The position numbers and the translations under genes are program-made. DNA of 57,274 nt, the filler included, from Sphacelaria rigidula (Eukaryota): assembly GCA_964200075.2 (NCBI GenBank). It is 6 parts of 6 records of this genome, joined end to end, with 100 filler letters (N's around TTAATTAATTAA, not from the genome) between each part and the next. Parts side by side here need not be neighbours in the genome. Positions count along the whole stretch, not along the records: positions 47,814 to 57,274 come from CAXNAA020008446.1; 5 more parts are not named here. The stretch is one strand, 5' to 3'. Below are positions 3,768 through 57,274 of this stretch, one piece after another. The stretch's first letter is position 1; every line of letters starts with the position of its first letter. The notes under the pieces were generated by a model that made no database searches, had not been told where the DNA came from, and worked only from the letters and a program-made list of their open reading frames with translations.

Positions 3768-4026
3768 TGTGACACCAAACAGAAGAACTGGTGGATCACT
3801 GCTGTTGAGGGAATCCCCAGTCTAACTGGCCTCAGTTTCAGTTGTCAGCCTTTGCAACATCTCATTATCAGGAGTGCCCTCGTAGGCACAGCCTCCTAGG
3901 CACGCCGGGTATCATCCCCGTGTCCCAGGTCGTTATCCAGAATCCTCCCAGAATTCTCCAGAATCCCCGTGCCCCCAGTCATTATCCAGATCTACCAACT
4001 CAACGTATGGGCGTAATTTCATCACA
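3768..4026 (-). repeat. 3' LTR
   Basis: TGTGAC...ATCACA. About 30 substitutions and 2 indels against the other LTR by eye (~88% identity). Confidence 0.92.
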
Positions 4027-4100
4027 GCACCCCCGAAGCACGTTGGACGAAAATCGATCAACAAGCTTGGCCCATAGAAATTGCCAAAACGATGAACAAG

Positions 4101-7100: not shown

Positions 7101-7244
7101 GGCGCCAGAATCCAACACAGCCCAAACCGCAATGGCTCCACGCTCCCGTTGATTCGGAAGACACAGCTCCTCAGGAACGTATTTGCCCGCAAACTCCACT
7201 GGCACTTCATCCACCGACCGATGCGCCACTAATCCCACTTGACG
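4101..7244 (-). pseudogene. pol: Disrupted pol (protease, RT, partial RNase H, integrase, chromodomain)
   Basis: PR AVLDSGA (~7110); RT KLDLLQGCWQ, VPQGVLNA, WVDDV; RH remnant IFTDHRNL; INT HHCC (GHRG...CLHC), SDTATHL, NGTCERMVK; WTGPW motif; chromo-like LVDWVGFEVEKRTWEHFED. Several stops and frameshifts, and a deletion of the RT end and most of RNase H near 5890. Confidence 0.92.
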
Positions 7245-8459: not shown

Positions 8460-8734
8460 AACAGCAGCCGGCTACCTGCGAACCTTTCGCAGGCCAGCGG
8501 ACCGTTGCGAATTGCCCACTTCACCCTTGCTTCGTCGCCGCACCACACCGTCGTAGGAGTCTCCAGTCTGGATTAATCACAGACCAACCGCCTTTCTGCC
8601 GATCACCTCAGCTAGAACCCCTTCCACGCGTCCGTGGTTTATCAGGTTTGTCCACATCTACCAGACTCTTGCGCCGGATTTTCCTGCAGCATTCCGCTAG
8701 GTACTAGCATTAGCACTAGCACTAATATCGATGT

Positions 8735-9001
8735 TGTGACGCCAGCCAGAAGAAGAACTGGTGGATCACTGCTGTTGAGGGACTCCCTAGTCTGACTGGC
8801 CTTAGTTTCAGTTGTCAGCCTCTACAACATCCCATTGTCAGAAGTGCCCTCTCAGGCACAGCCTACTAGACATGCAGGGTATCATCCTCGTGTCCCCGGT
8901 CATTTTCCAGAATCATCCCAAAATTCTCCAGAATCCCCGTGCCCCCAGTCATGATCCAGATCATCACTACCTACTCAACCTATCGGCGTAATTTCGTTAC
9001 A
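8735..9001 (-). repeat. 5' LTR
   Basis: TGTGAC...GTTACA, direct repeat of 3768-4026. Confidence 0.92.
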
Positions 9002-9463
9002 GATTGCACAGACACCGCGGCACTTAGTACAAACAGTGGAGCAACGAAAGCTAACTTTGACCGGGTTTGTGGGGCGTACTACCGCCAGCGTTGCTTGAAA
9101 GCCACAAGACCTTTGCGGTCGGCAGTTGATGGCGTGGGTCTCAAATGCAACGACAAGTGGTTGATCATAACGCACTCTTGTTATTGGAATATGTTTCGCC
9201 CCGGCTTGTAATGAATGACCTCTTCACATCGGAATTATCGAAAGCCACCGCGACACACGGGACGGGTGGGTGCTCAAGATGGCAGCATAGAGGCACCCCC
9301 ATGCGCCACGCCAGCAGCAGTTAGAATCGGCTGTTATAGGTATCTTTTTCGCTCCGCATGACAAGAAGGTCTTCACAAGTGTTTGATCTCTCTTACTCCC
9401 CCCCCCCCCCCCCCCCCACATCTCCTCCTGGCCTTTTTCCTCCACTGCTTCTCTCTAGTACAG

Positions 9464-9563
9464 NNNNNNNNNNNNNNNNNNNNNNNNNNNNNNNNNNNNN
9501 NNNNNNNTTAATTAATTAANNNNNNNNNNNNNNNNNNNNNNNNNNNNNNNNNNNNNNNNNNNN
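9464..9563. other. Artificial 100-bp linker N44-TTAATTAATTAA-N44 (also 19027-19126, 28590-28689, 38153-38252, 47714-47813)
   Basis: Five identical spacers with stops in all six frames, evenly spaced at 9561-9563 bp. The 10-N gaps at 26167, 42400 and 45377 look like native assembly gaps. Confidence 0.97.
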
Positions 9564-12174
9564 TCAATGGTCTTATGACTATGGCATGCATGATCATGAG
9601 TACCCCCCCCCCCGCCCCCAAGAGAATAAAAATGACGGCCCACTTTATTATTTTCAGTATACCTTTTGCGATTCTCCGTGTCAAGTCACAATTATAAAAA
9701 TTGAGCTGAAAAATTGAGATAAAGTCCAAGAACGAGGCCCCTTTTACCCAAAAAGTCCTCTGAAAAAAATGATGAGAAAAAAAGTTAGAGAAATGAAAAA
9801 TGCTGACGTTTTTTATTTTGTTGTGCGATAGAAATTCTCCGTGCGAAATTTCAAGGCACAACTCCCAAAAACTGAGGCGCAAAATCCAGATTTAGTGCAT
9901 GTAGTGCCTCTGCTCGTGATATATTGATTTTAGCATGGAATCTCATGTGCGCCATATCTCTAGATAGATAACGAATGAGGTGAAGGTAAGGGTATCGATC
10001 GTTTCCCCGTGCTCCAGGGAATGTCCGCACCAACAATCGTCATCATCCGCTGTATATATCGTTCGGGGTTTCATGTGGACGTTGGTGTGGACGGCTATCT
10101 CCGTACAGTACAGGAAATACCAGGCATGGCGTTCAATCAACTAGAAAGAAAAATAGCCCAGACTCTTGAGCGGATGGGCACCTTCCCCTTGGTCAGAGGA
10201 TAAACACAATATGCCGATCACTGCCCAACTCGTCTGTGTCGATGATATATTGCTTGGAGAGTTTTCACCCGTTTCTAGGCTGGACCAGCTCGTATCGCGT
10301 CCAGGGTCCTTTACTCTTTGGTATGTCTTAATCCATCCACAGCAATTGTCTCTCATTGGATGTTGTCTCTCTCGCCAACTCTGTGAGGGTTACTTGGACA
10401 TGCAAGATGTAGCCGAAACGCGCCCTTGGAGCAAAATACTGTACCAACCATGGGGGGCTCACCGCACATGACTGTTCCTGGCGAATCCAAGCTCGTTGAG
10501 TCTCGCAGTAAGTAAACTGCATGATGCACGTATAGGAGATATCGCGTGACTTGTGTACTTTTTTATATTGACATCCTGTCAGTCAGCCTTTTCTGCGTGT
10601 TTCGAAGCCAGCACACCGTTGTTAGATGAATGCCCGATATACGGTCCAGACGTGCATTGACAGTAGAAGGGTAAGAAAAAGTAACAACTTCAGGGGGAAA
10701 ACCATGAATAGTGCTGATGTTCCTGCACCGTCGGCTCCCGAAGCTCTCACCTTGAGTCGTCGAATTGCCACACACCTGCTAGTACTGTCTGTAGCAGAAG
10801 TTTTCATCATCATTCTTACGTCGACAGCTCATTCTCCTCCCACACGCCCCTCTAGGCGACACTTTCAAATCGCGGAAACACGACGGCACATGAGGCACGG
10901 GAGTGTCCGCGGCAAAGGCCTGGAAGCACGCTTCACGGGCTAGCGTTAAGGTTCAAAAAGTGTGGTGCTCCTGTGATACGGTTGCAGCCGGTCCGAAATT
11001 TCTCCTCAATATGACCGTCAGTAAAAGGCGTGTGCACCGATACTCTCCATACATCATTTTTATCTCATGTTCGTGTCCACCGGAATGAGATAAAAACGAT
11101 TGACCACATGCCGGTAGGGTATTTCATGTACTGTAATTTTATGCTGTGTCGACTACGCAGCACTGCAGCCTGTTGTGCTGACTGCAGGGTACCGTTCTCA
11201 CAGCTAGGAGGCAGCAGATGCCATCGTGCTTTAGTCGCCTCGATGCTAAGACGTGGGCCTCGTTTGCGGTGCAAGCGCAAACATACACTGAGAAAAAATC
11301 GCCGCAAGGCGGTCTAGCCGAGCCGTCGGGTAATCGGCACACGAACTCGCTCGCGATCGTCGCGATCGTTGCGGTCGCCAGCGGGATAAGTGTTGGGTTG
11401 GGTTTCCTCCTTCCATCAAGGAAAAAGAAAAACGGAGAAAAAGTAATTGAAATCACTCTAATTTCCTATGGCCCTTTGTTACATCAACTAACGGTCACTG
11501 ATTTTCAGGTTTAGATTCGGAATATTGTAGCACACTGCAGGCCAGTTCTAAGCCCAAGTCAATTCTTGGTGTGTCATGGGTGAAGCTGCCCACTTTTCGT
11601 GATATATTTCTTGGCAAGTGCTTTGAGTTTTGGGGAGCTGCGTGCCCTGCGTCCGCTCGCACCTCCTCCTGCGAACGGCCGGGCCTAATTATCTTCTCAC
11701 CGGGCAGTCATTTTCGCTGCTCTCACCGAAATTATGTAGGTGTAAGGTAAAGCGAGTCTTGACGCCGTTGCGCCGCGATGAGGTACCCCTAGGCCCTGTT
11801 CCTAAGTTACCATGTCATGGCTTTGCTGTACTTTATGGGTACTCAAGGCGACAATATCACAACTTGTTGCCGGCAATGCTGTCCCACTGTTCGGCATGGT
11901 AGACAGGGTTCTACGTCACATGTTCTCGTGCTGAGATACCTGCGCCTGTCTCGCCTATTCCACGGAGTGCTGTTCGACTGAAAGCACACTGTCACTCCAT
12001 CGAACGTACCACAATTGTTGACATGATAGATCTATGCCCGGCGCATCGTTCATTTGCGTCGCTTGTTCAGGCAACTCCAGAGGCCAATAGAGCCAGTTCC
12101 TTGCCGTCACCGATCATCCGGAAGCCGAACCTGTGGGTGCGTCGTGGTGACTTCCGTCGCCCGTCGTGTTAGAA

Positions 12175-18500: not shown

Positions 18501-20349
18501 CGGATCGTGCGGCTTCACCGAGATTCGAATTCACGCTCAACCGCCAGAAGCAGAAGGTTTCGATGTCACCAACTGAGCCACCGGAGCGACCGGACAGGTG
18601 CATGCTCAAGGGAATCACGCCCAAGGTTCGCAATGTATCACCCCGAACACCGGTAGCACTCATGCAACGAGCAATGCTACGGTAGGGGTGCACTTTTTGC
18701 CCGAAATCTTGTCTGGTTCAGGGGCTCCTAACGGTTCTAGATGCACAAGAATATGGGTCTGGACATCCCCGTTCGCAAATTCATCCGGGCTATCCCCAGC
18801 ACATTGGAAGAGTAATCCGGGCGTACTCTCACATATTTTCATAAGTCGTGTTTTGCATGGTATAAAGGGCTCCTAACAATTCTAAACTCAAAAAATATTT
18901 GTGCACCCCTACCGTACCACCACTCCAACGTTGACAGCATGAAAGTCTGTCCCCCCATCCATTTATAACTGTTTTCGTGAGATTGAAAGTAGATGATACG
19001 ATTGAGAGTGGCTTTGATCATTCGCTNNNNNNNNNNNNNNNNNNNNNNNNNNNNNNNNNNNNNNNNNNNNTTAATTAATTAANNNNNNNNNNNNNNNNNN
19101 NNNNNNNNNNNNNNNNNNNNNNNNNNTCCCTTCCCACCGAGGCAAAATCCAAGGGGGTGGCTTCTGCCTGTTTTGTTGCGAGCCGCACACACCAGGCTTA
19201 AGATGTGGGGGGGGGGGGGGGGGGGGGGGAATCCGGAACAGTTCGTCAACATGGAGAATTCCGGGAGAGCCAATACAAAAAGCCGATGACGGGAAAGTGC
19301 CGAAATGCAGACAAGACTTTCGCTACATCAACCCAGCGGATTACAGAAATGGATGGCCTTGCGCGACCGCCTGAACTAATACAATCAGCTACGATGATAT
19401 GCTCAGGTTGTCCCGCGTCAGTGCCGTTCAAAATATATGACCACCTGACACATTCATATTAGCTTTGTTCTTAAATCAGGGTGGAAGGTGACTGCAGTAA
19501 AATGACGCGACGAAAACGACATGAAGAAAAGGCCGCATGGAACACAGTGAAGTTATTGCCATCCCTGAACCCCAAAAAGCTCGTCATCCACAAACGATGA
19601 ATAACACCCCTCTCGTGGATTGTGATGCTCGGCCGAAAATCTAGCTTTCTTCCAGCAGACGGGGGATCGATCGCTAGTCCCCTTTTACAGTTTCACCTCC
19701 AGAACGTCTGGGGGAATCGTCTTCGTACGTGACAGGCCAAAGCGGTAGGTATCACCGCGATTTTCGTTTGAAAAAATGCTCAGGTGAGAAGGGAAGTTTA
19801 TGGCTTGATTGTGTCTCTTTGGACTGTTTCTTCCGCGCTAATTCTACTTCTGATGATCAATTATGTTGTCCTCCAGAAGGAAAGTAGGGTTGTCGCCACC
19901 TACCTACTCTTGCCAATGTGGACAGATACATAATTCCAGTAATAAGGTAGATATCACCCCCAAGACGAATAATTTTCAATCGTCGGACGAACCATGCACT
20001 TTTCCCAGGCCAAATTAACACATCTGGTATACATACATACTGTATATGGATGATGACTTACTTTGTAGTGCGTGTGACTCGACGTCTTCAACTCTTTCCA
20101 ACGCTCACAGATGAACCACCACTGCCTGACGTGTCACCTATCAAGTAGACGTCATGGTGCCAACTCAACTGATGGGACACCCACCCCCGTGAGCCCTTTC
20201 CCCCCACACTGCATAACAGACATTTTCCAATGAGCCCATAACCCGTGTGGCAAAATGACCGTTGTGGGCTTCACTCCAATGTACCGAATCGTCTGCAGTA
20301 AGGACCCCGAAATATTCGCAGTCAGAAGGGCTCGAGGGTTTAACATCAC

Positions 20350-22368
20350 CTTGTCAGCCTGCTCCGCCTTATACCGCTTCTGATCGTCCCTTGCCCTCGA
20401 GCGGTAAGCCTCTCGCTCGTCTCCAGACAGCGTCTTCCAAATCTCACTCATGATCTTATATGTCCACATGTATTTTGTTTCAAGGGAAGCAACATCAGGA
20501 CAGCGATGGGAGGGTGGGAAGGGGGGGGGGAAGGGCGCATCATACGGCTTGACAGATGCAAAGAGGCGTGGTAAATGGGAAATATTTTAGTCATCCTCCT
20601 TAGGCCGCTGTAGCTAAACTTGCTCGGAAGCTACGGAAAATGAGTTTCACCTTCTAGATCGTTGTCAACAGAGCTTCGCGAAAGGGAAAAAGCAGGACTC
20701 AGTGTGAAGAATTCGAAAACAGACAAGAAACGTTTTGAAACTGTTATCGAAAGCATAAATGTTCCGAAGGGGAGGCGGCGGGCGAGTCTCTTTCTTCCAC
20801 GAAAGTGAGATGGACTATGACAGTGTTGTCCCAGTAAACTCGCGCCATAACAGCGGAGCGATGTATGTCTACTGCTTGAAGGCCATGTCGAAATGGGATA
20901 TGTATACGATCACACTAGTAGCTTGGTGCCTGAACCCATGCAGAGTTTTCGGATACTGTATCCCTATTCTTTCATCAAGACACTTTGAGCGCACCTGTTT
21001 CTTCATCCAACAGGATTCGCATGCACCCTGTTGATGAGAGGATCACTTCTCTACTCATTGATCAATCAATCCGATAGTCGATATTTGACCATTAACATCC
21101 CTGACCTTTTGCTGCTGCGTGACAGCGATGTCGGGATTGTCCAGCTTTACTTGTTCGCGCCTGTCTTGGATGAACAGCATCCACGCGGACTGCGGCTTGG
21201 CCTGCGACGAAGCCGGCTGCGTCCACAGCCAGCAAGGACAGACGGGGAGATAGGGAGGGTAACGAAACACAAAGAAAAACGATCAACAGATCAGCGTAAA
21301 CAACTGAGAGCGCGGAGTGTTTCACCTTGTGGTTCCTTGAATCATCTGAGTGAACGATTTGGGCACATTGATGGTGTTTTATTGCAACTGCACATCAAAC
21401 ACTTGCTTGGTTATCAGGACACGTTAAGCACCACTCTGCGGACGGCAAACGGAAACCAGAATATCAAACGCTAGGGCTTGTGTTTCAATATGTACGTAGG
21501 AAGAAGCAACCGAAGGTGAAGTGCTAGCAGAGACCCCCGTGGAGAGAGCACTTCGTTTTGTCACGCAATATACCCGTCGGGGTCCACCTAATTTATGAGC
21601 ATGGGCGAGGCAAACTGTCCTGTACGTGCACTACTTACTGCTCTGTCAGCACGAAGCTTTTCGATTTGGTCGCACGAGCAAACGCCACAAACCAAAACCG
21701 CCCACATGACGAGAAACATGATGCGAGGATGAAAGCAAGCGAAAAGCTTCAATACATGCCCAACTTCACTTCCGCACATTAATCTGTACTTCACATTCGC
21801 GGCCACATACATTTACAGGATAGTACAGTACAGTACACGACATCAAATCAAAACAAAAGTCACTCACCCTCTTCTTGCCCCCCCCACCTGCCCCACCACT
21901 GACCCCGTTTACCCCAGCGACCGCCCCCGCTCCATTCCCAACCCCGCTCCCTTCCCCCCCCGCGCCCGCGCCCGCACCACCATCTCCTATCTCAGACGTC
22001 GGCGCGCCACCACCAGCAGGATTAGCTGGTATTGGGGTTGGCCCGGGCAACCCCGACTCTGCAGCATACCCGCCTTCGACGGCTACCATAGCCGGCGGTG
22101 GGACGCCGGCAACAGCGGCGGCCGTGGCGATGGGTGGTGCGGTTACGGGTTCATCGTTTTCATCCTCCGGATCAGGGGCGGCTGCCCCGGGAAGGGCGGA
22201 GGTGGCCGCCGATGTTGTGTGGAGGGGGGAAGATGGCATATCTGGTGGCGGTGTTGGTGGCGTTGGAAAAACAGGGGGTGTTGGTGTTGTTGCCGGGAGC
22301 ATGGGTGCTGGTGTGATCGGGGCAGGGGTGAACGTCGGAGGCGTAGCTGCGATGCTCGGGTCTGCCAT
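20350..22368 (-). CDS. HMG-box (HMGB/NHP6-like) protein; exons 22368-21868, 21201-21106, 20454-20350; 3' end not resolved
   Basis: Phase-0 GT-AG joins give a P/A/G-rich N-terminus, then GKKR|AKPQSAWMLFIQDRREQVKLDNPDIAVTQQQK|IMSEIWKTLSGDEREAYRSRARDDQKRYKAEQADK, a complete HMG box. Confidence 0.88.
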
Positions 22369-22938: not shown

Positions 22939-23910
22939 ATCATTTTCCCTTTGTTTGATCTCATCACACCAGTGGAGTGCAGTACTCGTACCGTCTCGCA
23001 CACCCCCGACTCGTGCCCTTCGAAAAGATTCAAAACTGGAGCAACCATTGTCACATCGAAACTGTAAATAGATCACACCTCCCGTAGATGCCAACTCCCG
23101 ACAGACACGAGATGGACTACAGTACCGTGTCGTGCCGTACCGCACAGTCCGCCCAGAGAAAAGTCCTCGCTTCATTCTACAAAATCGTGATGTACAACAC
23201 ATCAAATATACTATAATGAACCCTTTTATAGCCAGCAGAATCGCACACTGTTGGGACGTACTGTACACCGCCGTACGATCAGAGAAGTACAATGGAGTCG
23301 TACAAGTATAGTGTGGAAAGCGGAGCGGAGGAGTCATCACAAGTGCACGCAGGGCAGGTCACACTCGTCAAAAAAGCGTGAAACCAATAGCTATAGGCAC
23401 GTAAACCAGTTCGAGAAACGAGTTGGGAAATATAGAATCCCCTCGACACCTCTGGCGATCTTGCTCATTTCCTTTCTTACCTGAACTTTCTTCCGGCAGG
23501 GTAGGAGCGCCAGCAGCAGTAGCTGTAGTTCCTGGGTCTACAACTGAAAGCTTAGCTTGTCATTCACTATCCAATAGGATTTTGTAATTGTCATTTTCCA
23601 CTTTTCGTCTTCTGTCGCTTTTTAGGACAAGTTTTATTTTCTGTGGAAACAATTCTGCAGTTGCTGACACGGGACTTTTCCTCGCTACTAAATTGTATCC
23701 CAGGAGTACTGTCGATTCCATTTTGATGTCTCTGGAGAGGCGGCTGAGTTCCATCACTTCCTCCTTCCATTTCAGGTCTAAAATCAGGCTGATGTGACGT
23801 TGAAAAACAAAAGAGTATAGATACCAGACTCATCCATCTGCCGCTGACACAGCAGCAGCGCTTCCCAGTCGGGGCTTTACCACTACCGATCACAAGCTCT
23901 CCCCACGACC

Positions 23911-26900
23911 ATGCTTCCCTGTCGACGTGTGCTATGTACAGCAACATCTTCTACGAAGAAACTGGGAGTTTTGCGTGTTGAACGAACGACTGTGCGTCGT
24001 GGACACCCATCTTCATCTGCGCCACTACAATCATGGTTATCCCCATCCAGCAGCAATTACTCCACCGCGTTCAGAACTCGCGCAATAAGAACCACTCCAG
24101 CTGCACGCAGCAAGCAAGCAAGACCAGTGTCGTCGCCTGTGGCAAGCTCCATACGTACTGCCTCGACGACACCAACAGCGAGAGCTGGCAATACATCAGC
24201 GGCAGCAACAGCATCAGAGGGACTCAGTGCTGCACTTGAAAGTGGGGGCACATCAGCGGCCGCCGCCGCGGCCGCCGGAGGGAAGCAAGGGGTCGGAAGC
24301 AAGCCGGTAGCCGCCTGGCTGTTCGGGACGGCGGGAGCAGTGGCGGTGATGGTGACGGTGGGCGGGATTACCCGCATGACAAAGTCGGGGCTGAGCATGA
24401 CAGACTGGAAAGTTCAGGGATCACTGCCGCCTACTACTGAGGTGATTTCGTTGAAAGATACGGTGACATTGACCGTACTGCACTGAGCAGTGCCGATACG
24501 TGCGGAACAACCTTGGATACTTGGCTCTCGCGAAGACATGCGGAGGCACACAGGACGCGTTCTTGCTCTCTGCCCTATAATGGTGCCCGTAACTCTCGTG
24601 TTCAGTAAGGTTGCAGCGAAACCATGCACATGGTGGGTTACGTGCCCTGCTTGGGTGATCGTCGCCAGTTTTGCTTCCTGGACGTTTCTGGACGCCGTCG
24701 GTATCAACCCGTTCGAGCTTCGCTCACCCTTGGTCAGGACAGAGTGGGGACGCGTTGCTTGGTTGCTGTGTTTGATGTCTCCAATAGGGCTGTCTCTTTG
24801 TTTCTCTGCTGCGTGTACCGTGTCGTCCGTCAAATACAAATACCTCCCCCCTGTCGTCGAATTAGGACGAAATTGAAGAGGTGAAAAATGCGGCGAAACT
24901 GTTTACTTCCGTTGCCTTTCGTTTTGCGCAAAGTCTAGAAGGTCTTTTCTCAGACCAAAGCTGCTGCATGCGGCAGAAGATACAAACCAGCGCCGAGTAA
25001 TCCCCCCCGGTTCAAAGTTGTTCACGCGTTGGTCTTGAGATGAACTGCGCGGTGCGCAATGCTCGATATTCCGAACCGTCGCTCTTGGTGAACCAATCGC
25101 TGTGTGCTTTATTTTGTATTTTGTCCGAACTGGCCGATTGACCACGAACGGAGGAGCTAAAATTCATCGTTTTCGACACCTGCTGGCAGCTCCAAACTGA
25201 CTCTTTTTCAACAACATTTGTGGCAGGATTTCACTTTTTATTTCTCAGTACCGAACAACCGGTTCTTCGTGTCATGGTTCTGGCAATGTGTCGCCAACCA
25301 CTTCGCAAAGGACGGGAACAGTCACGAGAGGTTGATCGATTGCTAGTAACAGCGACATGAATCGGTAGATGCGCTCAGGTGGTTCTGTACAACATAGTCT
25401 CACAAAGTCAAAGTTCCTGCGCGAGAATCTTGGGCTTCTTCCTTTTGATAGCACGAACGTGTACTCTTGTGCAGAGCAGCGCCCGAGGACGAGCGGCCGG
25501 GTCTGCAGCTGACGCAGATATTTGCGGCTTCTTCTTTCAAGGCTGTGAATGATACCGTCATCAGACGGTTTCTTTCAGTTGTTTGGGGGGCAGGAGGGGG
25601 TGTGGGGGGGTGGGAAAGGAGGGGGGACTCATTTGTTACCATGAACCACACATGCTTTGCGAGACGGGGCACCGTTCCTACTCCTATTAGAGACACCATC
25701 AACATTTCGATGCTGTTGATATCTACTCCCTCCTCCTCTTGACTACTGGTAAATCTCTTTCTCCTTTCTGCAGGTCCACATCTCCCGTCCGAAATCGCAG
25801 TTTCAAATTTTCGCCGCGCCCATTGGGCCATGCAGATATCTTGTCATCCCTATCCCCTCTCTCGGCCCCCTGAATATCTTCAGGTGTTCTTCCTCACTTT
25901 TAGGACATTTGACGCGGTTTATGGTCCCCGAGGAGAGGATATCGCCATCAGACGTCTTGAACACTTTACATCACCCCACCCGAGAGGAGTTTATTATATT
26001 TTTTCGATCTGCTTGGCTCCGAGGTACCGGGAATGGCCACTGAGCAAAACCTGAACTGAACAAAAAATGTGGTGTCTGCAGCTCATCCTTCATGCGGCTC
26101 GCCGAACACACCACGGCGCTTCGCGCTTGGTGACTGAGTGCGAGCCTGATCCCTCGAAAATTCGGCNNNNNNNNNNTCCCTCGAACAGTCGGCGTGCGCC
26201 GTCCCGGCTTTGTAGGGACGCGAGGTCAATGGTCTCATGACTATGACATGCATGATCATGAGTACACCCCCCTAGGAAATACACCGCAACAAACGGTCTT
26301 AGTTGCCAGAAGATACCAAGTGTTATTCACGAAGTGTTTATTCACGGTGTGCCTGTAGTGGACGGGATAGCAAGGGAGCTTGCTCAGCCCCCAAGGCCGC
26401 AGGATGAGGTGCCCTGTCACTCCTCGCAGATGACACAAAATAGACGATTTTCACACGGGCTAGAGCATGTATCGAAAGTCAAGTCACCGCTACCGGTGGT
26501 ATACATCTCATACGCGCGAGATCGACCCTTTTCACCTGAGCACGACCAGTTTACACGACAGCAAGAACTTCTTCGCGTTGCTCTTTCGCCCCACAGTCGT
26601 CATCAAGTGAGTTGTGACAGTGTAGTACTCAGTGTCTACGGTGAACTTTGGTTTTATGGCAACACAACTGTCAGGAGCCCTGACGGGGGTCGCAGGGAGC
26701 TTTATCGGAACAGCACTTGGTCGGGCGTCTCCGACCAATTATATATGCCATATGTGTGTGTTTTGCCTTGTAAGACTTTTTTCTTTCGTTTTTTTTCGGG
26801 TGGAGGGGGGGGGGGGGGGGGGGGGGGGGTTTTCCTCCCGAAATTTTCTTTTCCCTTGGGGGGTTCCTTTTTTGGGGGGTTCTTCCATCGCAAATTTCGC

Positions 26901-27391
26901 TTTCCCTTGGGTGTGTCCATCTTGTGACCACAGATGCGATCATGTCGGACTCCTCGTACTGTTCATCAATGTGAGACGACCGATCAATCACGCACGCACG
27001 CACGCACACCTCGCTAGTCGAGGACGGTTCAACTGGCCTTATGTATCCAGACTTGACACGACTTTGATCGTTGTGCTTCGCGGCAGCAATACTAACCATA
27101 TCTGAGAGGGAAAAGAAACGGCCCAGCACATGTCTCTTTCAAGGGATGAATGGGCATACTTTCCGGTGCACGCGCATATGTGCGTGCGAGGTGTATACTT
27201 TGAAGTTTCTCGAACTATGTGTGTTTTGACATTTTGTTTCGGTCAACAACGTTCGAACCCACGGACTATCTGAACGGTCACATGCGCAGGGCGAATGGAG
27301 GGCGGAGTTCGAGCGTTACAAGACGTATCCTGAGTGGCAGCAACGCCAAAACATGACCCTTGAGGAGTTCAAGTACATCTTCTTCTGGGAG
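23911..27391 (+). CDS. COX15: Cytochrome c oxidase assembly protein COX15 (heme A synthase), first two coding exons 23911-24441 and 27290-27391; rest cut off by the linker
   Basis: R/S/T-rich presequence; VTVGGITRMTKSGLSMTDWK..LPPTTE|GEWRAEFERYKTYPEW..MTLEEFKYIFFWE matches the conserved COX15 N-terminal motifs; phase-0 GT-AG intron. Confidence 0.93.
26076..26273 (+). mobile_element. Family A SINE-like 3' fragment in the COX15 intron (another 3' end at 9564-9617)
   Basis: ...GTCCCGGCTTTGTAGGGA.GCGAGGTCAATGGTCT.ATGACTATG.CATGCATGATCATGAGTACACCCCCC. Confidence 0.8.
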
Positions 27392-30300
27392 GTACGTTCC
27401 GGGTCTTTCAAGGAATCAAAGTGGACATCCTTGTGTTATCCTCCAGGCTCCAAGTGTCGAATCCCCCCCCCCCCTCCTCAAGTTCTTGATAGGGTTGTTC
27501 CATGCTTGATATTATGGTTTCGTAGATGGCCACGTTTTCGCGCCTTCAGCCCCGCTCCATATGCAGGAGGGTGAGCGCTTACATCAACGAATACTAGAAT
27601 AACAATCAATGTGAGAATCATCGTACAGTTAGCGGCGAACATTATTTCATTCTGCAGCCGTTATTTTGTTGCCATCAATAGAGGTCTGGTGGGGCGACGG
27701 CTCCCACGTGGAAACTTATATCGAGTCAAAGCTCTTGTCAACGGGGCTCTTACAACAGTGGAGGCATGCTCTTTTGATACATTGATGATTTTGAGGGGGC
27801 TCCGTAGCACGTGGAACGCATGCATCGAAAACAATATTGTTTTGAAGCTTTTCCTTTCTTGTCTCGGCACTAACAACAAATGTACCCACAAAACGACTTT
27901 CGATCACTGCCTAGGTTGTGATGTGCGTCGACGCCCCACACGATCTACAAAACCAGAGAGCACGCAGTGTTGCTTTTGCATGGTCATCATGCGTATTCCT
28001 CTTGTGTGCGCGTGTGCGTGTGTGTGTGTTCTGTCATCTTATCTATTCTGGACGCTAGTCTACACATTTCGGTATATGTGGGAGCATCAGTTGGAGTCAC
28101 ACAGCAGGAAGGTGAACAGAAGAGTTTTTCATTTCTTGTTTTGTTTAAGCATGCCACCTTTCTTCTGCTGTGCTTGCCTTTTTTTTATAGCGCGAGAAGG
28201 GCTCAGCGGTCCTTTTACCCCGGAAGTCGTGAGGTCGAATTTTACGTACCCACGACATGGTCGCTCTCCACCACACCCTGGACAAGGGGTTCTATTGTAA
28301 AACAATGTACGGCGTACAGTATGGGATCTTTTGCCTGTTGCAATAGACGCAATAGTCGATACTGCACGCAGCATATTTTTTGTCAATGTAATCTATTGTC
28401 CAGGGTGTGCTCTCTACCGTTGGGCATGATGTTAGAAAAAAAAACCAAGATCGTGTGACTTCATCGAGATTTTCACACACGTCCCAACCATCATAAGATT
28501 TCACACCCTCGGCAATACTTCCTCTGTCCCATAAGGAAAGTCCGTTATGTTTATACGAGCCCTTAACGGTGTCCGATTTGATTTTCGATNNNNNNNNNNN
28601 NNNNNNNNNNNNNNNNNNNNNNNNNNNNNNNNNTTAATTAATTAANNNNNNNNNNNNNNNNNNNNNNNNNNNNNNNNNNNNNNNNNNNNCCCCCTCTACT
28701 CAACGACCCATGACGCGCCCCCTATACTAAAAACAGTATACTAGTGAACCCCCACACTAAAACCAAGGCAATTCTCATAATAGTTCTCAAATATATCCCA
28801 GAAAACCCGCCAAAATTCCCAATATTCGACACACTATTTCTCAGTAATTACGAATCGGATTCAACTTTGTTTTATTTTAGAGGTATCCTCAAATCCATAG
28901 CTTTTCAACAAGCCTATCGGTAGTATCGTGAGTGACTAGGTTGGCGAGATATGATTTGTACCCCATAAGGACCTTTACTTATGGCACAGAGGAAGTATTA
29001 CTAGAGTGTTTATGCCATAATCTCCAATTATGCCCCCGCTCTTCTCAATAGATGAAAAACGTTCAGTCCATGAGGGCAAACGTCGTGGATGATTATTTGA
29101 GATGAGGCGCATGAAATACAACATAGCACCATTCGGCTAACGTTCACAAAACAGGACCATGGTTGTCGGCCTTTTCGGAAAAGCACTGTCTACTTCTTGA
29201 AAAGACGCTTTGCTTTTTGGCCCGATCTTCACACGCCACCCTCCTCGGGGAGAGTCTTGAGTGATCTTAAGGGATCGACATTTTACCTGCCTTACACCGT
29301 GTTTTCAAGTATTTTCCTGCAGTCCGTCGGTCTCCATCATACTAGTGTTGAAACCACAAAGCAGCAACTTAGCGGCAGCCAGCGTTTAACTTACACCCCC
29401 ATTAGGGCCCGATTCATGACACCCCATTATTTTCGCCTGTTGAAAGCAAATGAATAGTTTTCCCTTCCCGTCGTTGTCCAAGGGAAACTCTATACTCCCT
29501 GCCCCCACAAATGTACAGAGCAGACATCCAGGGCGCTCGCTCTTCTATGCCTGGAGTCTCATTTTGTCGCGGCAGAAGCTTCAAACACTATACGACTAGT
29601 ATTTACCTTGAACATACGGACTTATCCCGGCATTTCTCCGCAAGTACGGGATGGGCTAGCCTAAAAGCGGATCAGTAGGTTGCAGACAGCTTCTCAACTC
29701 AGTTTGGAGAGTTTTGCTTTAAATTTTTGTGTGGGGGATCGCCAGAGCATACTAAAGAAACAACTTGTGGAAAAATTGTGTTTATTTCATAAGTCAAAGA
29801 AAGCAAATATATACACGTTTCACTAATCACTCCTAACTAATGAACTGAAAAACAAGGCCCCCCAAAAGCGTTTCCCATAATGACCTGGTGATTTTCTACA
29901 CCAAATTTCTTGCGTCACTCTCAAAAATGAGGTGAGAACTCCAGATTTACAGGCTGGCTGGCCCAGCCTACATATGGAGCTGTATGTTGTAGGCCATTCA
30001 GCGGCTCGGTTCAGAGAGCTGTGCTTTGAACTTTTGTGCGGAGAATCGCAAGTGCATAATAAAATAGATACTGCGAGGTAATGGTTTTTCTTCATGAGTC
30101 AAGAACATTTCTCACTCTGCCCTTACTGTTCTCCACGCTGAAATTTCAAGTAAGGCGCAACTCTCAAAGCTGAGCTGAGAAATCCAGATCTAGTGTGCAA
30201 TGACCTAAGGGCAAAAAATAAACATCTAAGGTTCACAAAACCCTTCTTAACTCATGAAGGAGAATTACAATCTCAATGTGCCAAATGTATTTTTTTCTTC

Positions 30301-35755: not shown

Positions 35756-37731
35756 TATAAACAGCCGATTCTAATTTTGGGGTTGGACACCAAGATGAGG
35801 TTCAACCCCAATTCGAAGAATCGAGAACTCGCGCCAAAGAGTATCACCACGGGAAAACATTTTCGCAAGCAGAGTTTCTGTTGCAGCTACGCCGGTCTAG
35901 TTAGGTGCACCAAGTGAATACGGTGCACACGCGTGTCGATGACGATATCACCAGAGGAGCAACGGCGGAGAGGAAGCTCTCCGTCGGTGTCCTTTGTGTG
36001 TCCTCGTCACGCGATTCCCGACCACTGCAGAGGTTGGCATCATGTTATAGTAGCAGCACATACCCAGGTTGCCATGTGTGGGCAGGCGAGTTATTGTAGC
36101 ACAGTCCCGGAAACAAGATCGCGGGATGTCCCAGTTATCGTCTCCTATCTGTGGCGCTGACCAATGCGAAGATTGCATTATCTCTGCCTCTCTTCTTGGA
36201 CAGGAAGTGCCTCTGCGCGCAGTAGAACACGTCGTCGAAAAGCAGGGTGATGTTCCCGTCACCGCTACTGTTCTCTCATACACACATGCGAGCAAGGATA
36301 GCTGCGCCCTTGCGGCAAGATCTAATATTCGGAAGCTGGGGGGCTGTTATTGCAGTCGTTGATTTCATCCGACGTCTGCGAAACGAGGACAACGTCCAGT
36401 CTGCCACATCCCAGTGGTGAGGGGCTGGATGTATTAGGGATCAAATATTCCGTAGATCTTCTGGGTATGCGGAGTGAAAAAAGATGCCTCGTGCGGGTGA
36501 CTGAGCTCTTGCTGGCGTGACCAAAATGGGGGCTGAGAACGTGTGATTGAGCCTCTCTGCTGTCGACCGGTTGCATGCATGGTGTGTATGTCGGGGGGTA
36601 TCTGTCGCAAGAAATTGTCATGTGAGGAGAGTCATACTAAGCTGAGGCGAGATATGGTTAGGAGCAGGGGTGTCCTATGAGAAACCACCTGCCATTGCAT
36701 TCCTGACCCGCGCCGTCAAGCGCTGACCAGGAAGGTCTTGCTGAGAGCAGCTTTCGAGCAACGACAGCAGTAGGCAGTCGGTTCAGCCCGAAATATTACT
36801 ACAACTTCGTTGCTGCATGTACTGCCTGCCTGTAGCTATTCGATTGTACAAGCCTTGTGAGGGAGAAGGCTAGTCGTATCAGAATCTTGATCGGTTGGAT
36901 CGAAACGGCTCTAGAGAAACATTGCCGCCCCCCCAGAAAGTTTTATTCGAATTAAATTCACCCTTTTGCAATCGCAATGCGTTTTCTAGGAGACAAATTC
37001 AATTTCGAACATGAACGGGTCCACTGCAGTTCGGTTCTATACTGATCGCTCTATGCAGATTCCAGAAACGCTTGATGAAATTATTCGTACGGATGCTCGA
37101 ACGGCTGACCGAACCCATCTCTTGCACTGTTCTCTCAGCTTGCGAGCACGGTTTTGACTTAACCTATCAAGGTTCTAATATGATTACCCTCCTCTCTCGC
37201 AGGGCTTGTACAATCGGATTGCTACAGGCAGGCAGTACATGCAGCAATGAAGTTGCAGTAATATTCTGGGCTGAACCGACTGCCTACTGTCATTGCTCGA
37301 AAGCTTTTCTCAGACAAGACCTTCCGAGTCAGCGCTTAACGGCACGGTTTAGGAATGCAATGGCAGGTGGTTAATCATAGGACACCCCTGTTCCTAACCA
37401 TATCTCGCCTCAGCTTAGGATGACTCTCCTCACATGACAGCTTTTTGCGACAGACACCCCCCCGACACACAATGCTCCGTCTCAAAAGGGATGCGTGGTC
37501 AATGGTCAATGTACAAATGACCAAGGCAAGCAACACATGAGTACGCCCACCCCCGACACACACACCATGCACGCGACCGGTTGACAGCAGAGAAGCTCAC
37601 CTACAGCATCTCAGCCCCCATTTCGGCCACGCCAGCAAGAGCTCAGTTACCCACACGAGATTTGTTTTTCACTCCGCATACCAAGGAGGTCTACACGAGT
37701 ATATGATATCTAAAACATCCACCCCCCCCCC
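35756..37731. mobile_element. Second cassette plus fold-back element (cassette 35756-36420; arms 36420-36912 and 37141-37731)
   Basis: Cassette homologous to 2018-2760. The two ~490-bp arms are reverse complements; the right arm carries a LINE 3'-end insertion. Confidence 0.85.
37472..37554 (+). mobile_element. Extremely 5'-truncated LINE 3' end with 13-bp TSD
   Basis: TSD CCCCCGACACACA at 37459-37471 and 37550-37562. The opposite arm (36575-36610) shows the empty site. Confidence 0.88.
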
Positions 37732-37732
37732 C

Positions 37733-51324: not shown

Positions 51325-51831
51325 ATGAAAGATAATCAGTACGCTTTGGGCCGAATACATCACGGCGCTTTGCGCTTGGTGATTGATTGCGAGCCTGGTC
51401 CGGTGAAAACCGGGTGTGCTCCATCCTGGCTTTGTAAGGATGCGAGGTGAATGATTCATATGGCTATGGTATGCATGATCATGAGTACACCCCTCCCCTC
51501 CCCCGCAAACATATGGTGAGAAACATATAGTGAGACACCCATGAGGCAGTGTATACGCCGTGGCTGTCTCAGGAAATGGCGATACCAGAAAATAAAGCAA
51601 CTGATTATAGGCATCCAAATGCAAGACAATCAGTACGCTTCGAGCCGACCAATCTCAGCAGGATGCAGCTCACCCTTCATGCGACTCGCCGAACACACCA
51701 CGTCGCTTTGCGCTGCGTGGTGTGAGTGCGAGCCTGGTCCGGCGAAAACCCGGCGTGCTCTGTCCCGGCTTTCTAGGGATGCGAGGTCAATGATCTTATG
51801 ACTACGGCATGCACGATCATGAGTACACCCC
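51325..51831 (+). mobile_element. Two tandem 5'-truncated family A copies
   Basis: Both end in GATCATGAGTACACCCC (~51490 and ~51830); the array follows a C-rich tract at 51289-51318. Confidence 0.85.
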
Positions 51832-52097: not shown

Positions 52098-55000
52098 TCT
52101 GTTTTTTCTTTTGCACTATTTGATTTCCACTGTGGAAAGCGTGAGAACGTGAGTAAACAAAGTAGTCGACTGAGTTTGTTTGACGTGAGTTGACGCGGTG
52201 CGGGAGAGTGCTGACCCGAACGGCGAGACCAAAATGCAAGGCGTGTACCGGGGGAGAGAGGGGTTGATCCCTGGAGACTACGGACTTATCCCCAGAAAGG
52301 TGGGTGGTTCAAAGTGAGATAGGTAATAAATAATGATAGAAGAAAATGAAACAGACGTGCAACGTCACAACACAGTCGGTACAGCCTGTCGCTTCACAGT
52401 AAAGCATTTCCATCATCCACCGCTGGCAGAACAGTGTATTGTACGAAACGCAGGAAACTGCTGGAGTACAGCAATCCGAAGATGGGCATAAATGATGCGG
52501 CATGGCGACGCACCCCTACATTCCCCCGTTCCCACCACAGCCACATACATATGAGAGGAGACATGGGATACCGTGAACCACAAGCGCGAATAGTAGGATG
52601 TAGAAGATACAGAGCTAAGTAGCTAGCGTAGTTACATAATCAAGTGATGATGTGTCGGGTTATAGCTTGGTAAGCCTCCCAGGCAAAGAGAATCGGTTGT
52701 TCCCAACTTGCGTAGCATTCATACACAAACACACGCACATCAAACATCAAGGGAGCCAACGTACAAGAATAGCAATATATACATATATATATATAACTGG
52801 GCGGTATGAACAATCCCAACGGACAAAAGTATAACATCATTCACAGCAGCAACAAAAAGCAATGCCGAAGACAGCAACAACGACGACGACCACCACCGGT
52901 TGCAGCAACTAAAACAACGGCAAACGTAAGGCCTTTAAGGTGCGGTGAAAGATGATTATCAACTTTACGGTGCTGCAAGGCTCTAATCTCGCTCCCGAGG
53001 GTGTCGGCTATATCTCCAGCATTTTGTGACCTCCCCCGTCACACCGAACGGTAGCGTTGCACCTGTCTGGAGATCGCGGCTTGAATGGTCATTAAGATAA
53101 CTTGTTTGATGCGATCGGAGAGAGTTCTTCTCTGGGGCAGTTCTGTCCAAAACATATTTGACAATCACCATCACCGCCCACCACACATGAAAGCCCTTTT
53201 ACTGTTGTCGTCGGTCTCGTTTTTCGTTTCTGTTTGTTGGTCATCATTCACATGATAATAGCCGTACCAGAGACAAATAAAAACTGCAACACTCGCTCAA
53301 GAAAGTTGAAGAGAGCAGAAAAGGTAAAGCAGGCAACCGGACTAGTCTAAGAAAAGAAAAGAAAAGAAAAACAAAGAAAAACAAAGAAAAAAAGGAAAAA
53401 CAGATTTGAAAAGAGAAGAAGGAAATGTAGAAAGAGTAGAAATGGCCGGCCTCTGCCACATGGCTTCTGCGGGAAAGGTCTTGCGAAGAAACCACACTCA
53501 CACCCAATCGAACAAAACCAAAGACCGTGGGAAAACTTGCGACTCATCTATAATACTACGACGTCGCTATTTTGATATTTCTGTTGGAATTAAATGCAGT
53601 GACACTATGGTTATATGATCATGTTCATGTTGGCGCAATGTGCTATTATGTCCGATGGCTAGAAATGTGTGGCATATCTTATAGCCCCCTGCCCCCCCCC
53701 CGACTAGCACGTCGACACTAGGATTAAGATATGTATTCTGACGGACGTGATTTTCCCGAAGCTTGAGTATGCAGGAGGATAATGGGAAGGGAACACGAAG
53801 TTTGCGAAGCAGCTGGAAACCGTACAGATGATATCAGCTGAGAGATAACTTGGATGCTCAAAAACGTCGAGTGAAAAGAGGGTTAGTATCAAGCGCAGAA
53901 TTGGGAGTGTACCCACTTGAAGCAAGTAGAGACAACCTATATTGAAATGCAGTAGCAATATAATGTAAGGAACAGGCCAAAGAAGACATTACCAGTCGTA
54001 GGTGATAGGGCTGTATGGAAGAGTTGCTGTATGTAGCGATAGTCCCCCCCCCCCACCCGGAAAAATGGCTGGATTGAGGAGCCAAAGTCTACAAGCGAAT
54101 CAAAATGACGGAGTCGAGCACACCGAGTAGCTAGGGACTCCGCCGCTTGAGATCGGTATCGCCAATGTAGCCCACATGAAACGCTCCATACGGTCTGAAA
54201 CTAGCTCTTCGTGACAGTTTTGTGGCCGACTTGAGAGGGACCATCGCGGCATTACCTGGAAGAAACCAAAGGGCAGGTTGGAATAGGGTGGGGTAGCTTG
54301 CAGTCGAGAAAGGCTGGAAAGATATGAAGAGAAACAAGAGGAACATTCCGTAGGTGAATGTGGAGGGCACAAGACAAAAGTAAACGGAAGGAGAGAAATA
54401 CGGGGGAAACAAGAGCTATGATGAGACAAAAACGTGGACGAGGAAGCGTACCTGAAGATATACGGAGGGGTTGAGAGAAGTGCCACTAATGAAAACATAA
54501 TATACACGCAGATAATATATGGGGGGGGTGAGAGAAGGGCAGATAGTACCTGCATGGCCCAATGGACTACACGAAAAAGCTGAAACTGCGATTTCGAATG
54601 GGAGATCTGAATCTGCCAGAAAGAAGAACACCAGTCGTCGGGTGTAGGAAGTTGACGCACAGAATTGCAACATGCATGGCAGAACAGCAGAGAGTATACT
54701 TCGTCTGAAACAAAAGTTAGCTCGATTATGGTGCGCAGATCATATCTTTTGAACGGAAGAGCGTGCGATGCTATAGTTAGGTTCATTGCAAAGCTACAAT
54801 CACGGAGATGCTCATGAAAAAAACGAACAAAAAATCCGAGATGCTATTAGTGAGAATCTGTGGGGTCAAAACACTGTACCCTATTTTGGCCAATATTTTG
54901 GGAATTATTTGAGAATGTTTCTGAGAATGGTTTTTGAGACTTTTCTGAGAACTCTTGAATGGAAGTCCGTTTACCGCCCTCCTTCGTGGCAAAACCACGA

Positions 55001-55635
55001 TGAATACCGTAAACACCCCCCCTCGTCGCCAGCGGGGCGTTGAGGTGTCATTAGGCCGCCGCTATGCCCTGGCGATGGAGGTAGCGCTGGCCATTCCGCC
55101 AGGCAAAGTAAGGCTGCCCAAGGGCGTTGCCGGCCCCCTCGCCCAGCCCTACGGTGTTGGCCTTGAATACCCCGCACAGCTATGGAAGAGCTGCAAAGCA
55201 TTGATCAAAGGCACCCAGGAGCTTGGCCTCTCAAACAAACCTTGTAGCGGGCGGTCGTTGCTGCTTACTTCAACGAAGGAGGCGGCACTGCGGGCGGTAA
55301 TTTGGTGTTTTTCTCCCCCGGAAAAGAGGCGAAATATGGTCTTTTTTGGGCCGACTGATCTTTTGGGCCGCTTGCCCATGCAGGAGGCTGCGCAAGAAGA
55401 GTAAAAGAAGAGGGTTTCAAGTCGAAAAATGACAAAGATTTCAAAAATATCATCGCCGACGGCATCGGGCATGGCTAAGATCCAGTGCAAACGTAATCGA
55501 CTTAACTTATGTGTCGGAGAAAGTATGTAGAGGGAGAATGTGGACTACATACACCCTGCACAATATGCCGTCATTATTAGTTGCAGTAGAAAAACTTGTT
55601 CTGCGCAAAGTGCAGGCCTGTTGCAACTACTGCAT

Positions 55636-56014
55636 AACACGCGGCCGTTCGGTTACCCCCCCAAAATTCTCTACCGCGATTTTCATCGTCTCGAAGGTAA
55701 AATACCCTCTAGGGGATATTTCATCCTCAGATGCGGTCATAAAAGAATCCTCTGGAGGGCATCTGATGCTCCGGTGACTTCTGAGGTCTGACTCCCTCGA
55801 GAATAACGAAAACGATGGTGCTCTGGAGGGCCGCGCATCCTCCAAGTTTCTCCAGAGGGTGCGCGGCCCTCCAGAGGCAAAGCAAGCCTCTGGAGGCGTT
55901 TGATCCCAACCCTCTGGAGGGCCGCGCACCCTCTGGAGGAGATTAATTCCTCTGGAGGCTCGAATAGTTAACCGGAACAGAGTATTTTGGGGGGTAGCCG
56001 AACGGTCGCGTGTG
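55636..56014. mobile_element. MITE with ACACGCGGCCGTTCGG TIRs and internal CTCTGGAGG repeats
   Basis: ACACGCGGCCGTTCGGTTACCCCCCCAAAAT pairs with ATTTTGGGGGGTAGCCGAACGGTCGCGTGT. At least 6 CTCTGGAGG/CTCCAGAG motifs inside. Confidence 0.8.
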
Positions 56015-56221
56015 AAGGGTAGGTCGGGTAGGGCATATATGATATTCGGCGTTTTGAAAAGTCGCACACCACTGGCCTAGGTCAGTTACAAGGACTTGTA
56101 TGGGCTCTAGAGCGGGGAATAACATCATCAATCGGACTGGCTGTGGCTGTGGGCCTGAGTCGGATTTGCACTTTTCAAATTTCCATCAGTATCGAGTATA
56201 GCCCATACCCGACCTGCCCTT
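56015..56221. mobile_element. Small MITE
   Basis: AAGGGTAGGTCGGGTAGGGC pairs with GCCCATACCCGACCTGCCCTT. Confidence 0.7.
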
Positions 56222-56595
56222 GAACTCTTGGCCACATTTTGTTCAGGGCACGCGACTATACAATGGCATCTTAGAGGAGATGAGGGAAGTAAATGAACAT
56301 GAGAGATTGTTTACATCTTAGATGAGATGAGGGAAGTAAACGAACGTGAGAGATTGTTTGGCACTTGGGATATCAGCGACAAAACGATCGCGATAATACT
56401 TCGCAGTATAGTAGGAGCCAGATGGTGGCCACAGACGGCGAAACAGGAAGGGGATAAGATTGGTTAAAGCTTCTTCTTGTGTAAAGTACGGAAAAAGCTA
56501 ATGTGCGCCAAAATAAATGTTGAAGGTGTCTCTACAAGGCGTAGGAAAGGTGCTCCGTCTCGAAAGGGATACGTGGTCAATGGTCGAATGACAAA

Positions 56596-57176
56596 GGAGA
56601 GAGTTTCCTCGAAAATGAGGTTGAACATTAAAATCCAGTTAATCTCCAAAACAGTACCTTCCCTGACCTAAAGTCACGACAAATAATTTTCACACAGAGG
56701 GCCTCATGCCCCTTGACCTCCCTGATCCTTTGTTGGGGGTTCCCCGTCTTCCGTTCCTCTCCCAAAAGGGTATGTCAACGGTTTTTGCGCCATGTGTGGA
56801 AGGAGCGTAATGAGCACCGAAATGTTGGAGTTGCCCCTATTAGAAATAGGAACGTTGCTCTGTCCCGAAAGGGATACGTGGTAAATGGGCAAACGACTAG
56901 GGCAAGCAACAAATGAGTACGCCCCCCCCCCCAACGGATATGTGCGAGAGTACCATTTTCGAGAAAAATGCGTCCGTTTCTTCACCCCGAAATCGAGGCA
57001 AAAAGGTGTTTTCGCACATGCCCTTCGGGGGAATGGAAGACGGGAAACTCTCAAAACATGTTTCACGGAGGTCGGGGGAATCAGGTCGTCCATAGAAGAG
57101 TCATTTATCATTACTTTAGGTCAGGGGATAAAACACTGTTTTGGAGTCCGACCTCATTTTCGAGGAGATTCTTTTC
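56596..57176. mobile_element. Palindromic MITE (family of 626-995) inserted in the LINE 3' end and itself carrying a LINE 3' end (56776-56932)
   Basis: TIR CCTCGAAAATGAGGT / ACCTCATTTTCGAGG splits ...ATGACA|AAGGCAAGCAACAAATGA. The inner insertion is flanked by CCCAAAAGGGTATGT / CCCCAACGGATATGT. Confidence 0.85.
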
Positions 57177-57274
57177 AAGGCAAGCAACAAATGAGTACGC
57201 CCCCCCCCCCCCCCCCCCCCGCACGAACGGGGGGCGGGGGCAAAGGGCAAACGTCGGAGGCAGGCAAAAACAAA

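Follow-up and report, generated by a model that had tools for sequence, protein, structure and literature searches.

A brown-algal LINE with C-run tails in the genome of Sphacelaria rigidula

The genome of the brown alga Sphacelaria rigidula (GCA_964200075.2) harbors a long interspersed nuclear element (LINE) whose copies end in runs of C, and which is described here from a stretch of 57,274 bases, termed the window. The copies represent a brown-algal non-LTR retrotransposon (one lacking long terminal repeats) with a single open reading frame (ORF) of ~1,400 codons, and this LINE inserts in association with C-runs, including the tails of older copies. A nick in a G-run, priming by a C-run, and positioning by the last ~70 nt of the element are considered the best explanation for the start of its reverse transcription, and this reading is favored as fairly probable. 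The window consists of six pieces of ~9,463 bases each that were artificially joined, and is not one continuous locus. Identical linkers (44 N, TTAATTAATTAA, 44 N) occupy positions 9464-9563, 19027-19126, 28590-28689, 38153-38252, and 47714-47813; since these linkers cut there, element ends at 9564, 38152, and 47814 are non-biological. Three additional runs of 10 N resemble scaffold gaps.

The 3' end of the LINE and its C-run tails

Seven copies of one LINE 3' end, ...AACAAATGAGTACG, are present in the window. A profile of the last 160 nt yields 13 matches there, eight of which form these seven copies, while the other five are ends of a second, non-autonomous family. The 3'-end motif GCAAGCAACAAATGAGTACG is matched five times at no more than 3 mismatches (at 37526, 56902, and 57180, and on the minus strand at 45451 and 47920) and not once in 100 shuffles. 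Nine of the 12 ends (seven of the LINE, five of the second family) are followed by at least 7 C in the next 10 bases and the remaining three by 5-6, against a background of 1.1% of 113,350 window positions with at least 7 C per 10 bases. Poly(A) is absent after all 12 window ends, as it is after four copies detected elsewhere. The ends themselves are near-identical and the tails range from CCCA (copy A) to C33 (copy B). The constant 3' end is combined with variable 5' truncation, giving copies of 39, 74, 75, ~150, and >1,200 nt.

The first-pass annotation had described a relic ORF end, followed by GTACG and then by (C)n. Translation of copies E (...SRKGYVVNGQTTRASNK*) and F (...KGYVVNGRMTK) agrees with this description, and the recurrence of the 3' end with C-runs and never with poly(A) holds for all seven LINE copies, each of the 12 ends being succeeded by C-rich sequence. 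Also confirmed in the sequence are the C-tracts directly preceding the 5'-truncated pieces at 53702 and 47889. In a correction to that annotation, the end at 57199 belongs to the long decayed copy F that begins at 53702 and is interrupted by three inserts; copy E is nested within one of them.

Scanning for the GCAAGCAACAAATGAGTACG motif beyond the window detected three loci in metagenome contigs and one in prokaryote genome contigs (a record of a metagenome-assembled genome, MAG), with no match in viral contigs. These four outside copies show the LINE end, then C8, C10, CCTCCCCCCC or C13, and then unrelated sequence. Three of their contigs carry open frames of 1,426 codons (L002, C10 tail), 1,253 codons (L001, C8 tail, frame open at the contig end), and 1,382 codons (the contig behind L004/L005, C13 tail). 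In all three intact ORFs the end reads ...VVNGQ(T/M)TKASNK-TGA, followed by GTACG and a C-run, so that the proposed spacing of only 5 nt between stop codon and C-run is seen in each. The contig filed under a bacterial MAG carries a eukaryotic LINE and is therefore probably a binning contaminant. Homology between L002 and the L004/L005 contig persists as far as the L002 contig reaches; therefore, the element measures 5.0 kb or more, with its 5' end lying beyond. Upstream of this region of homology, the first ~190 bases of the L004/L005 contig (in element orientation) contain two tandem repeats of ~70 nt (CATATCAAAAC...GACATAGACAT...ACCAGTTTTTTTT), which may be monomers of the 5' untranslated region (UTR) of the LINE. 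A search for a target-site duplication (TSD) around L002 returned one 8-mer match only, which is at chance level.

The encoded protein confirms the assignment as a LINE, with an endonuclease of the apurinic/apyrimidinic (APE) type located N-terminal to a reverse transcriptase in a single ORF. Protein P0002 matches the Pfam families Exo_endo_phos at residues 235-461 (E 6.7e-13) and RVT_1 at residues 807-1056 (E 1.1e-30), the same domains are found in P0003, and a C-terminal CxC-x8-H-x4-C knuckle follows the reverse transcriptase. Human L1 ORF2p is the closest solved structure to the LINE ORF (E 3e-22), followed by R2 proteins. Relatives of residues 760-1426 of P0002 include proteins of Ectocarpus sp. 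CCAP 1310/34 with 47-66% identity, one of which ends ...TASNK. Among the 46 relatives of the LINE ORF listed (P0154-P0199), 12 carry G(C/R)VVNG at 8-12 residues from the C-terminus, some of them being only ~40% identical. A decayed ORF piece of 113 aa (stops as X) gave no match in a word-index protein search; an exhaustive HMMER search with the same piece gave 169 matches at E <= 0.001, nearly all to fragments shorter than 330 aa, and these were left unused.

The second family is composed of units of ~340 nt without an ORF that have only the last ~70 nt in common with the LINE. Its five ends (9603, 26265, 42519, 51488, and 51826) each read ...ATGCATGATCATGAGTAC. The common ~70 nt point to a specific 3' sequence being recognised rather than just the tail. 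As the codons for G(C/R)VVNG lie within this common sequence, their conservation may act at the RNA level.

Public sequence collections extend these observations. The last 2.5 kb of the LINE are present in at least 20 public runs from 13 studies, which cover marine and macroalgal metagenomes and five organisms. Contigs of four runs (3043, 11, 4667, and 3618 contigs) were aligned to the 3' 900 bases of L002. In three of the four, the summed depth reaches 10^5-10^6 over the last ~100 nt vs 10^2-10^3 upstream, a 100- to 1000-fold gradient that fits extreme 5' truncation together with abundant partners having the same 3' end. At least 155, 1, 380, and 164 contigs of the respective runs depart from L002 at the homopolymer (places 103-107). 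Their next 8-10 letters remain homopolymer, so that many runs reach at least 17-20 letters; afterwards the agreement with the consensus is 0.34-0.44, which indicates unrelated flanks. Thus, hundreds of copies leave the run into unrelated sequence, and not into a common longer 3' UTR or poly(A). Joints at which contigs go back from places 158-179 to places 103-122, with 1-36 letters in between, represent short tail-to-head copies, and 60 contigs of run X19 carry a homopolymer immediately 5' of truncated copies of ~65 nt.

Two-colour Illumina chemistry yields poly-G at read ends, and homopolymer lengths in assemblies are unreliable. The runs might hence be regarded as a sequencing or assembly artefact, or else as the 5' start of an element on the opposite strand, a reading of negligible probability. 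The homopolymers occupy internal positions between stretches of unique sequence, and they recur in the window, in the four independent outside contigs, and in the contigs of the four public runs, where loose ends extend by 60-255 letters (medians). The orientation is fixed by the direction of the ORF, the variable 5' ends, and the depth gradient. C-runs are likewise recorded in the manually curated Ectocarpus library, as given in its annotation notes (PMC12477816). The independent assemblies and the internal position of the runs exclude an artefact.

Insertion sites and the proposed priming of reverse transcription

TSDs are resolved for two insertions, A and E, and both begin in a C-run. Insertion A is bordered by the 13-nt duplication CCCCCGACACACA at 37459-37471 and 37550-37562. 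It occupies one of the two arms of an inverted duplication, and the unfilled paralogue of the site, at 36585-36597, is in the opposite arm; an extra CCCA separates GTACG from the 3' copy of the TSD. Insertion E shows a TSD of ~15 nt, (C)nAA.GG.TATGT, at ~56761-56775 and 56929-56943, with its empty paralogue at 759-774 in a paralogue (624-1012) of the foldback-like element that received the insertion. Its 5' junction is ambiguous by 5 nt, TATGT, which are common to target and LINE. The C-run comprises C3 in the 5' copy of the TSD, C5 at the empty site, and C11 after GTACG, so that ~6 extra C stand between GTACG and the TSD. Both features had been proposed in the first-pass annotation, i.e. TSDs starting in a C-run and two empty sites visible in the window, and both stand: the two insertions with an empty site each start in a C-run, the empty sites are unfilled paralogues, and pre-insertion sites devoid of C/G runs were not encountered among the two that are resolved. 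Beyond these, C-runs flank both sides of copies D and F and of many short copies, and the TSDs of A and E extend into unique sequence.

Under target-primed reverse transcription, the position of the bottom-strand nick corresponds to the first base of the TSD, so that the primer would end in G's. Besides a C-run inherited from the donor, two other sources of the tail are conceivable. According to the first, the RNA ends ...GTACG without C, a site-specific LINE nicks (G)n/(C)n tracts, and the C-run is merely duplicated target. In favor of this are the TSDs that begin in C-runs, and likewise the C-runs on the 5' side of copy F (C10), of copy D and fragment H (both C-rich), and of the 60 contigs mentioned above; G/C homopolymers are also abundant apart from the family. 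It does not account for the extra letters between GTACG and the TSD in both resolved insertions (CCCA in A, ~6 C in E), for the 3' runs of at least 17-20 letters in public contigs, or for copy B, which has C33 at its 3' side and none at its 5' side, and it is thus considered unlikely. The second source would be untemplated addition or slippage, the reverse transcriptase adding G to the nicked end or stuttering on a few template C, with the run made anew at each insertion. R2 reverse transcriptase can add untemplated nucleotides, and slippage probably lengthens the microsatellite tails that other LINEs carry. Tail lengths from 3 to 33 among near-identical ends would fit this process; by itself, it leaves the start of TSDs in C-runs and the insertion into older tails unexplained, and the interrupted tail (CCCCCA)n of copy D looks templated or inherited. 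It is judged slightly less likely again than duplication of the target.

The data agree with a C-rich RNA end priming on a G-run, since the C-run at the 3' side exceeds that of the target (the same relation holds to the 5' run in copy F, with C21 vs C10) and since tail-to-head tandems occur. In this mechanism, the bottom strand would be nicked by the endonuclease within or at a G-run, and the liberated G-rich 3' end would anneal to a 3'-terminal C-run of the element RNA. Polyadenylation cannot make a C-run, which must hence come from the donor; the RNA C-run would be a read-through copy of the donor's own tail. The conserved last ~70 nt would position the reverse transcriptase and confer specificity, with synthesis starting there. 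The C-run of each new copy would then merge with the C-run of the target, and old tails would turn into new targets, giving rise to tandem arrays. The wider proposition that the family nicks G-homopolymers specifically, primes its reverse transcription by G-run:C-run pairing with recognition of the ~70 nt, and acts as a self-reinforcing source of the G/C homopolymers that are in unusual excess in brown-algal genomes is more tentative, and its chances are put at a little under even. If it applies, the element would be a natural G:C counterpart of the T:A priming of L1, and each insertion would leave a longer C-run as a new target, so that the LINE and its partners would amplify such runs on their own.

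Several observations weigh against this mode of priming. No 3' end of a LINE RNA was seen among the 20 runs listed with the element, none of which is on record as RNA, and X19 is RNA by guess only. Empty sites are available for just two insertions, in each case as a diverged paralogue (87% and ~70% identity), and therefore the C counts of the targets are approximate; moreover, homopolymers change in length in vivo and are prone to errors in assemblies. On its 5' side, copy B lacks a C-run. A weak consensus fold, with 14 pairs, 1 compensatory change, and -6.9 kcal/mol, was obtained for the common 3' end, and a recognised RNA structure is thus not claimed. Finally, an unrelated retroelement at 2688-9417 is likewise bordered by C/G runs, which implies that some C-runs in this genome arise or are targeted independently of the LINE.

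The same point bears on the idea, raised in the first-pass annotation, that the LINE generates the G/C homopolymers of the window. Runs of G or C of at least 8 letters number 23 vs ~1.5 expected from a first-order model (maximum of 7 in 100 simulations); A/T runs of this length number 15 vs 2.5 expected. Contact with the family was found for 8 of 22 G/C runs, which supports the idea in part, and the rest abut the unrelated element or are unexplained; about half of the G/C runs adjoin no element that could be named. The LINE may consequently account for a portion of the excess. G/C tracts of this kind can form G-quadruplexes or i-motifs.

Relation to known LINEs

Mammalian L1 elements possess a poly(A) tail, nick at TTTT/AA, and anneal the primer to the tail. 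They resemble the window LINE in their APE endonuclease and reverse transcriptase, in heavy 5' truncation, and in TSDs that start with bases matching the homopolymer tail, as would be expected from annealing of the nicked strand to this tail. In contrast to L1, the tail of the window LINE consists of C and not A, does not derive from polyadenylation, and follows a single ORF. Furthermore, the 3' sequence common to a non-autonomous partner argues that recognition in the window LINE is sequence-specific ('stringent') and does not concern the tail only, a difference from L1 and a likeness to RTE/L2-type elements. The analogy to L1 drawn in the first-pass annotation is incomplete with respect to the ~70-nt end in common with the second family.

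LINEs with simple-repeat tails, such as microsatellite-targeting R1-clade elements and Dong, form another group for comparison. They have in common with the window LINE head-to-tail arrays and 3' ends that recur in partners resembling short interspersed nuclear elements (SINEs). Differences concern the repeat unit, which is a single nucleotide, C, in the window LINE, and the insertion sites, as the TSDs of A and E leave the C-run into unique sequence and insertion is probably not confined to arrays. A very short 3' UTR and, instead of poly(A), a repeat tail resembling the target are further likenesses, also to members of this group annotated in Ectocarpus, i.e. the (CAA)n-tailed RTE-1/2_Ec32 and the (CA)n-tailed CRE-1_Ec32 of the PMC12477816 library.

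Whether a LINE with a C-run tail had been described before was left open in the first-pass annotation. Such elements are recorded in the annotation notes for the RTEX families of Ectocarpus, in a study of its transposable-element landscape in which RTE-X families are the most abundant elements (PMC12477816). Its Supplementary Material 3 lists RTEX-1_Ec32 with a 'single EN-RT ORF; (C)n 3'', a 'C-rich' TSD, and lengths of 5,867 and 5,511 bp, and RTEX-2_Ec32 with '(C)n termini/TSD'. Two non-autonomous families are noted as well, RTEX-N1_Ec32 (607 bp, '60 bp 3' end 83% RTEX-1/2', 'can be present in tandem') and RTEX-N2_Ec32 (188 bp). The window LINE and the second family match RTEX-1/2 and RTEX-N of Ectocarpus, respectively, in a comparison based on the library notes alone. 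Like RTEX-1/2_Ec32, the window LINE combines a single endonuclease-reverse transcriptase (EN-RT) ORF, a (C)n 3' end, and a C-rich TSD, with a length of ~5.5-5.9 kb there vs at least 5.0 kb here. RTEX-N1/N2_Ec32 resemble the second family as tandemly arranged non-autonomous partners with the last 60-100 bp of the LINE in common (~70 nt here) and differ from it in unit length, 607 and 188 nt vs ~340 nt. The clade label RTE-X derives from a blastp note in PMC12477816 and not from a phylogeny.

The descriptive facts are therefore not new; the window confirms and details the annotation available from PMC12477816, and the mechanism is what we infer. The term 'C-rich' has no occurrence in the main text of that study, and neither the annotation notes nor the text offer a mechanism in the portion of the source available. 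Beyond PMC12477816, no other description of C-tailed LINEs was found in a search that bracketed terms, e.g. poly(C), fell outside of, which makes the negative a weak one. As its C-run tail is not obtainable from polyadenylation, the LINE constitutes a clean natural system for the definition of the template 3' end in LINEs, and it allows the contributions of primer-tail pairing and of protein recognition to the choice of insertion sites to be addressed.

Individual copies and further features of the window

Copy F, on the plus strand, is the longest and was delineated by blastn/tblastn against the intact copy and by translation. Its first segment (53702..54022; L002rc 3967-4276; ORF ...HLDTRIKRCIL..PKLEYAGEVWEGN...) is directly preceded by C10 at 53692-53701, its second segment spans 54260..54668 (L002rc 4277-4638), and its third segment, starting at 56324 or 56379 and ending at 56597, contains the ORF relic up to ...KGYVVNGRMTK and a 46-bp tandem duplication at 56267-56359. 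The 3' profile matches this copy at 56452-56597 and 57177-57199, and its last 23 nt (...GCAAGCAACAAATGAGTACG) together with a C21 tail (57200-57220) occupy 57177..57220. The 237-bp insert between segments 1 and 2 (54023-54259) carries C11 near its left (5') end at 54044-54054, has no C-run at its right end, and has no match elsewhere in the window. The second insert extends from 54669 to ~56323/56378, and no informative match was found in the window for 54669-56378. The third is the foldback-like inverted-repeat element at 56598..57176, which lies between ...ACAAAG and GCAAGC of the LINE tail and has arms at 56644-56775 and 57146-57016. Its segments 56621-56775 and 56928-57162 correspond to 624-774 and 759-992 of the paralogue at 624-1012, which is devoid of the nested LINE. 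This nested LINE is copy E (56771..56932, plus strand), a 5'-truncated copy of ~150 nt that starts at 56771/6 and ends at 56921, with its C11 tail at 56922-56932.

Copy A (37472..37549, plus strand) comprises 74 nt (37472-37545) plus CCCA. The remaining copies are located on the minus strand. Copy B (45418..45525) consists of 75 nt (45525-45451) and a C33 tail, which appears as G33 on the plus strand at 45418-45450. Just downstream of this tail lies copy C (45316..45374), the 5' side of which is cut by a gap of 10 N and the LINE portion of which (45374-45328) is followed by a C12 tail. Copy D (47890..47958) contributes 39 nt (47958-47920) with the tail CCCCCC(ACCCCC)4A at a C-rich site, and fragment H (47815..47889; L002rc 3665-3739) directly follows the D tail and is cut by the linker at 47814. 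Copy G (25629..25894) corresponds to L002rc 4451-4972 with an internal deletion and is followed by a C-rich tract.

Sequences of the second family were all annotated on the plus strand. In a head-to-tail tandem at 51350..51831, the end ...ATGCATGATCATGAGTAC of each unit precedes an A and then a C-rich run, with tails at 51488 and 51826. Tandem units are also present at 41948..42875, with a tail at 42519 followed by A and C9. A unit end with C11 at 9564..9613 is cut on its 5' side by a linker, and the unit end at 26194..26272 is followed by A and C6. Further stretches of the family cover 37733-38152 and 26077-26272.

The retroelement at 2688-9417 measures ~6.7 kb. On the minus strand, 7248-8471 encode a gag zinc knuckle, and 5762-6394 a reverse transcriptase. 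The element shows inverted terminal repeats (2688-2780 / 9411-9319 and 2901-3280 / 9378-9002), with G14 at its left and C20 at its right end, and may be DIRS-like. A related terminus is located at ~37673-37721 (37673-37733) and is followed by C12.

An Rfam scan of the whole window gave no match at the gathering score. Exon-like frames at 23848-24483 and 27230-27571 match COX15/CtaA (E 2e-12 and 2e-06) and an HMG box is matched by a frame at 20155-20586 on the minus strand (E 1e-05), all of which probably belong to intron-containing host genes. An open frame of 858 codons at 12151-14724 encodes EsV-1-7 cysteine-rich repeats (nine Pfam stretches, E 1e-108) and is internally duplicated in tandem. 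Among its named relatives, which come from the brown algae Sphacelaria, Pylaiella, and Ectocarpus, the best one shows 52% identity.

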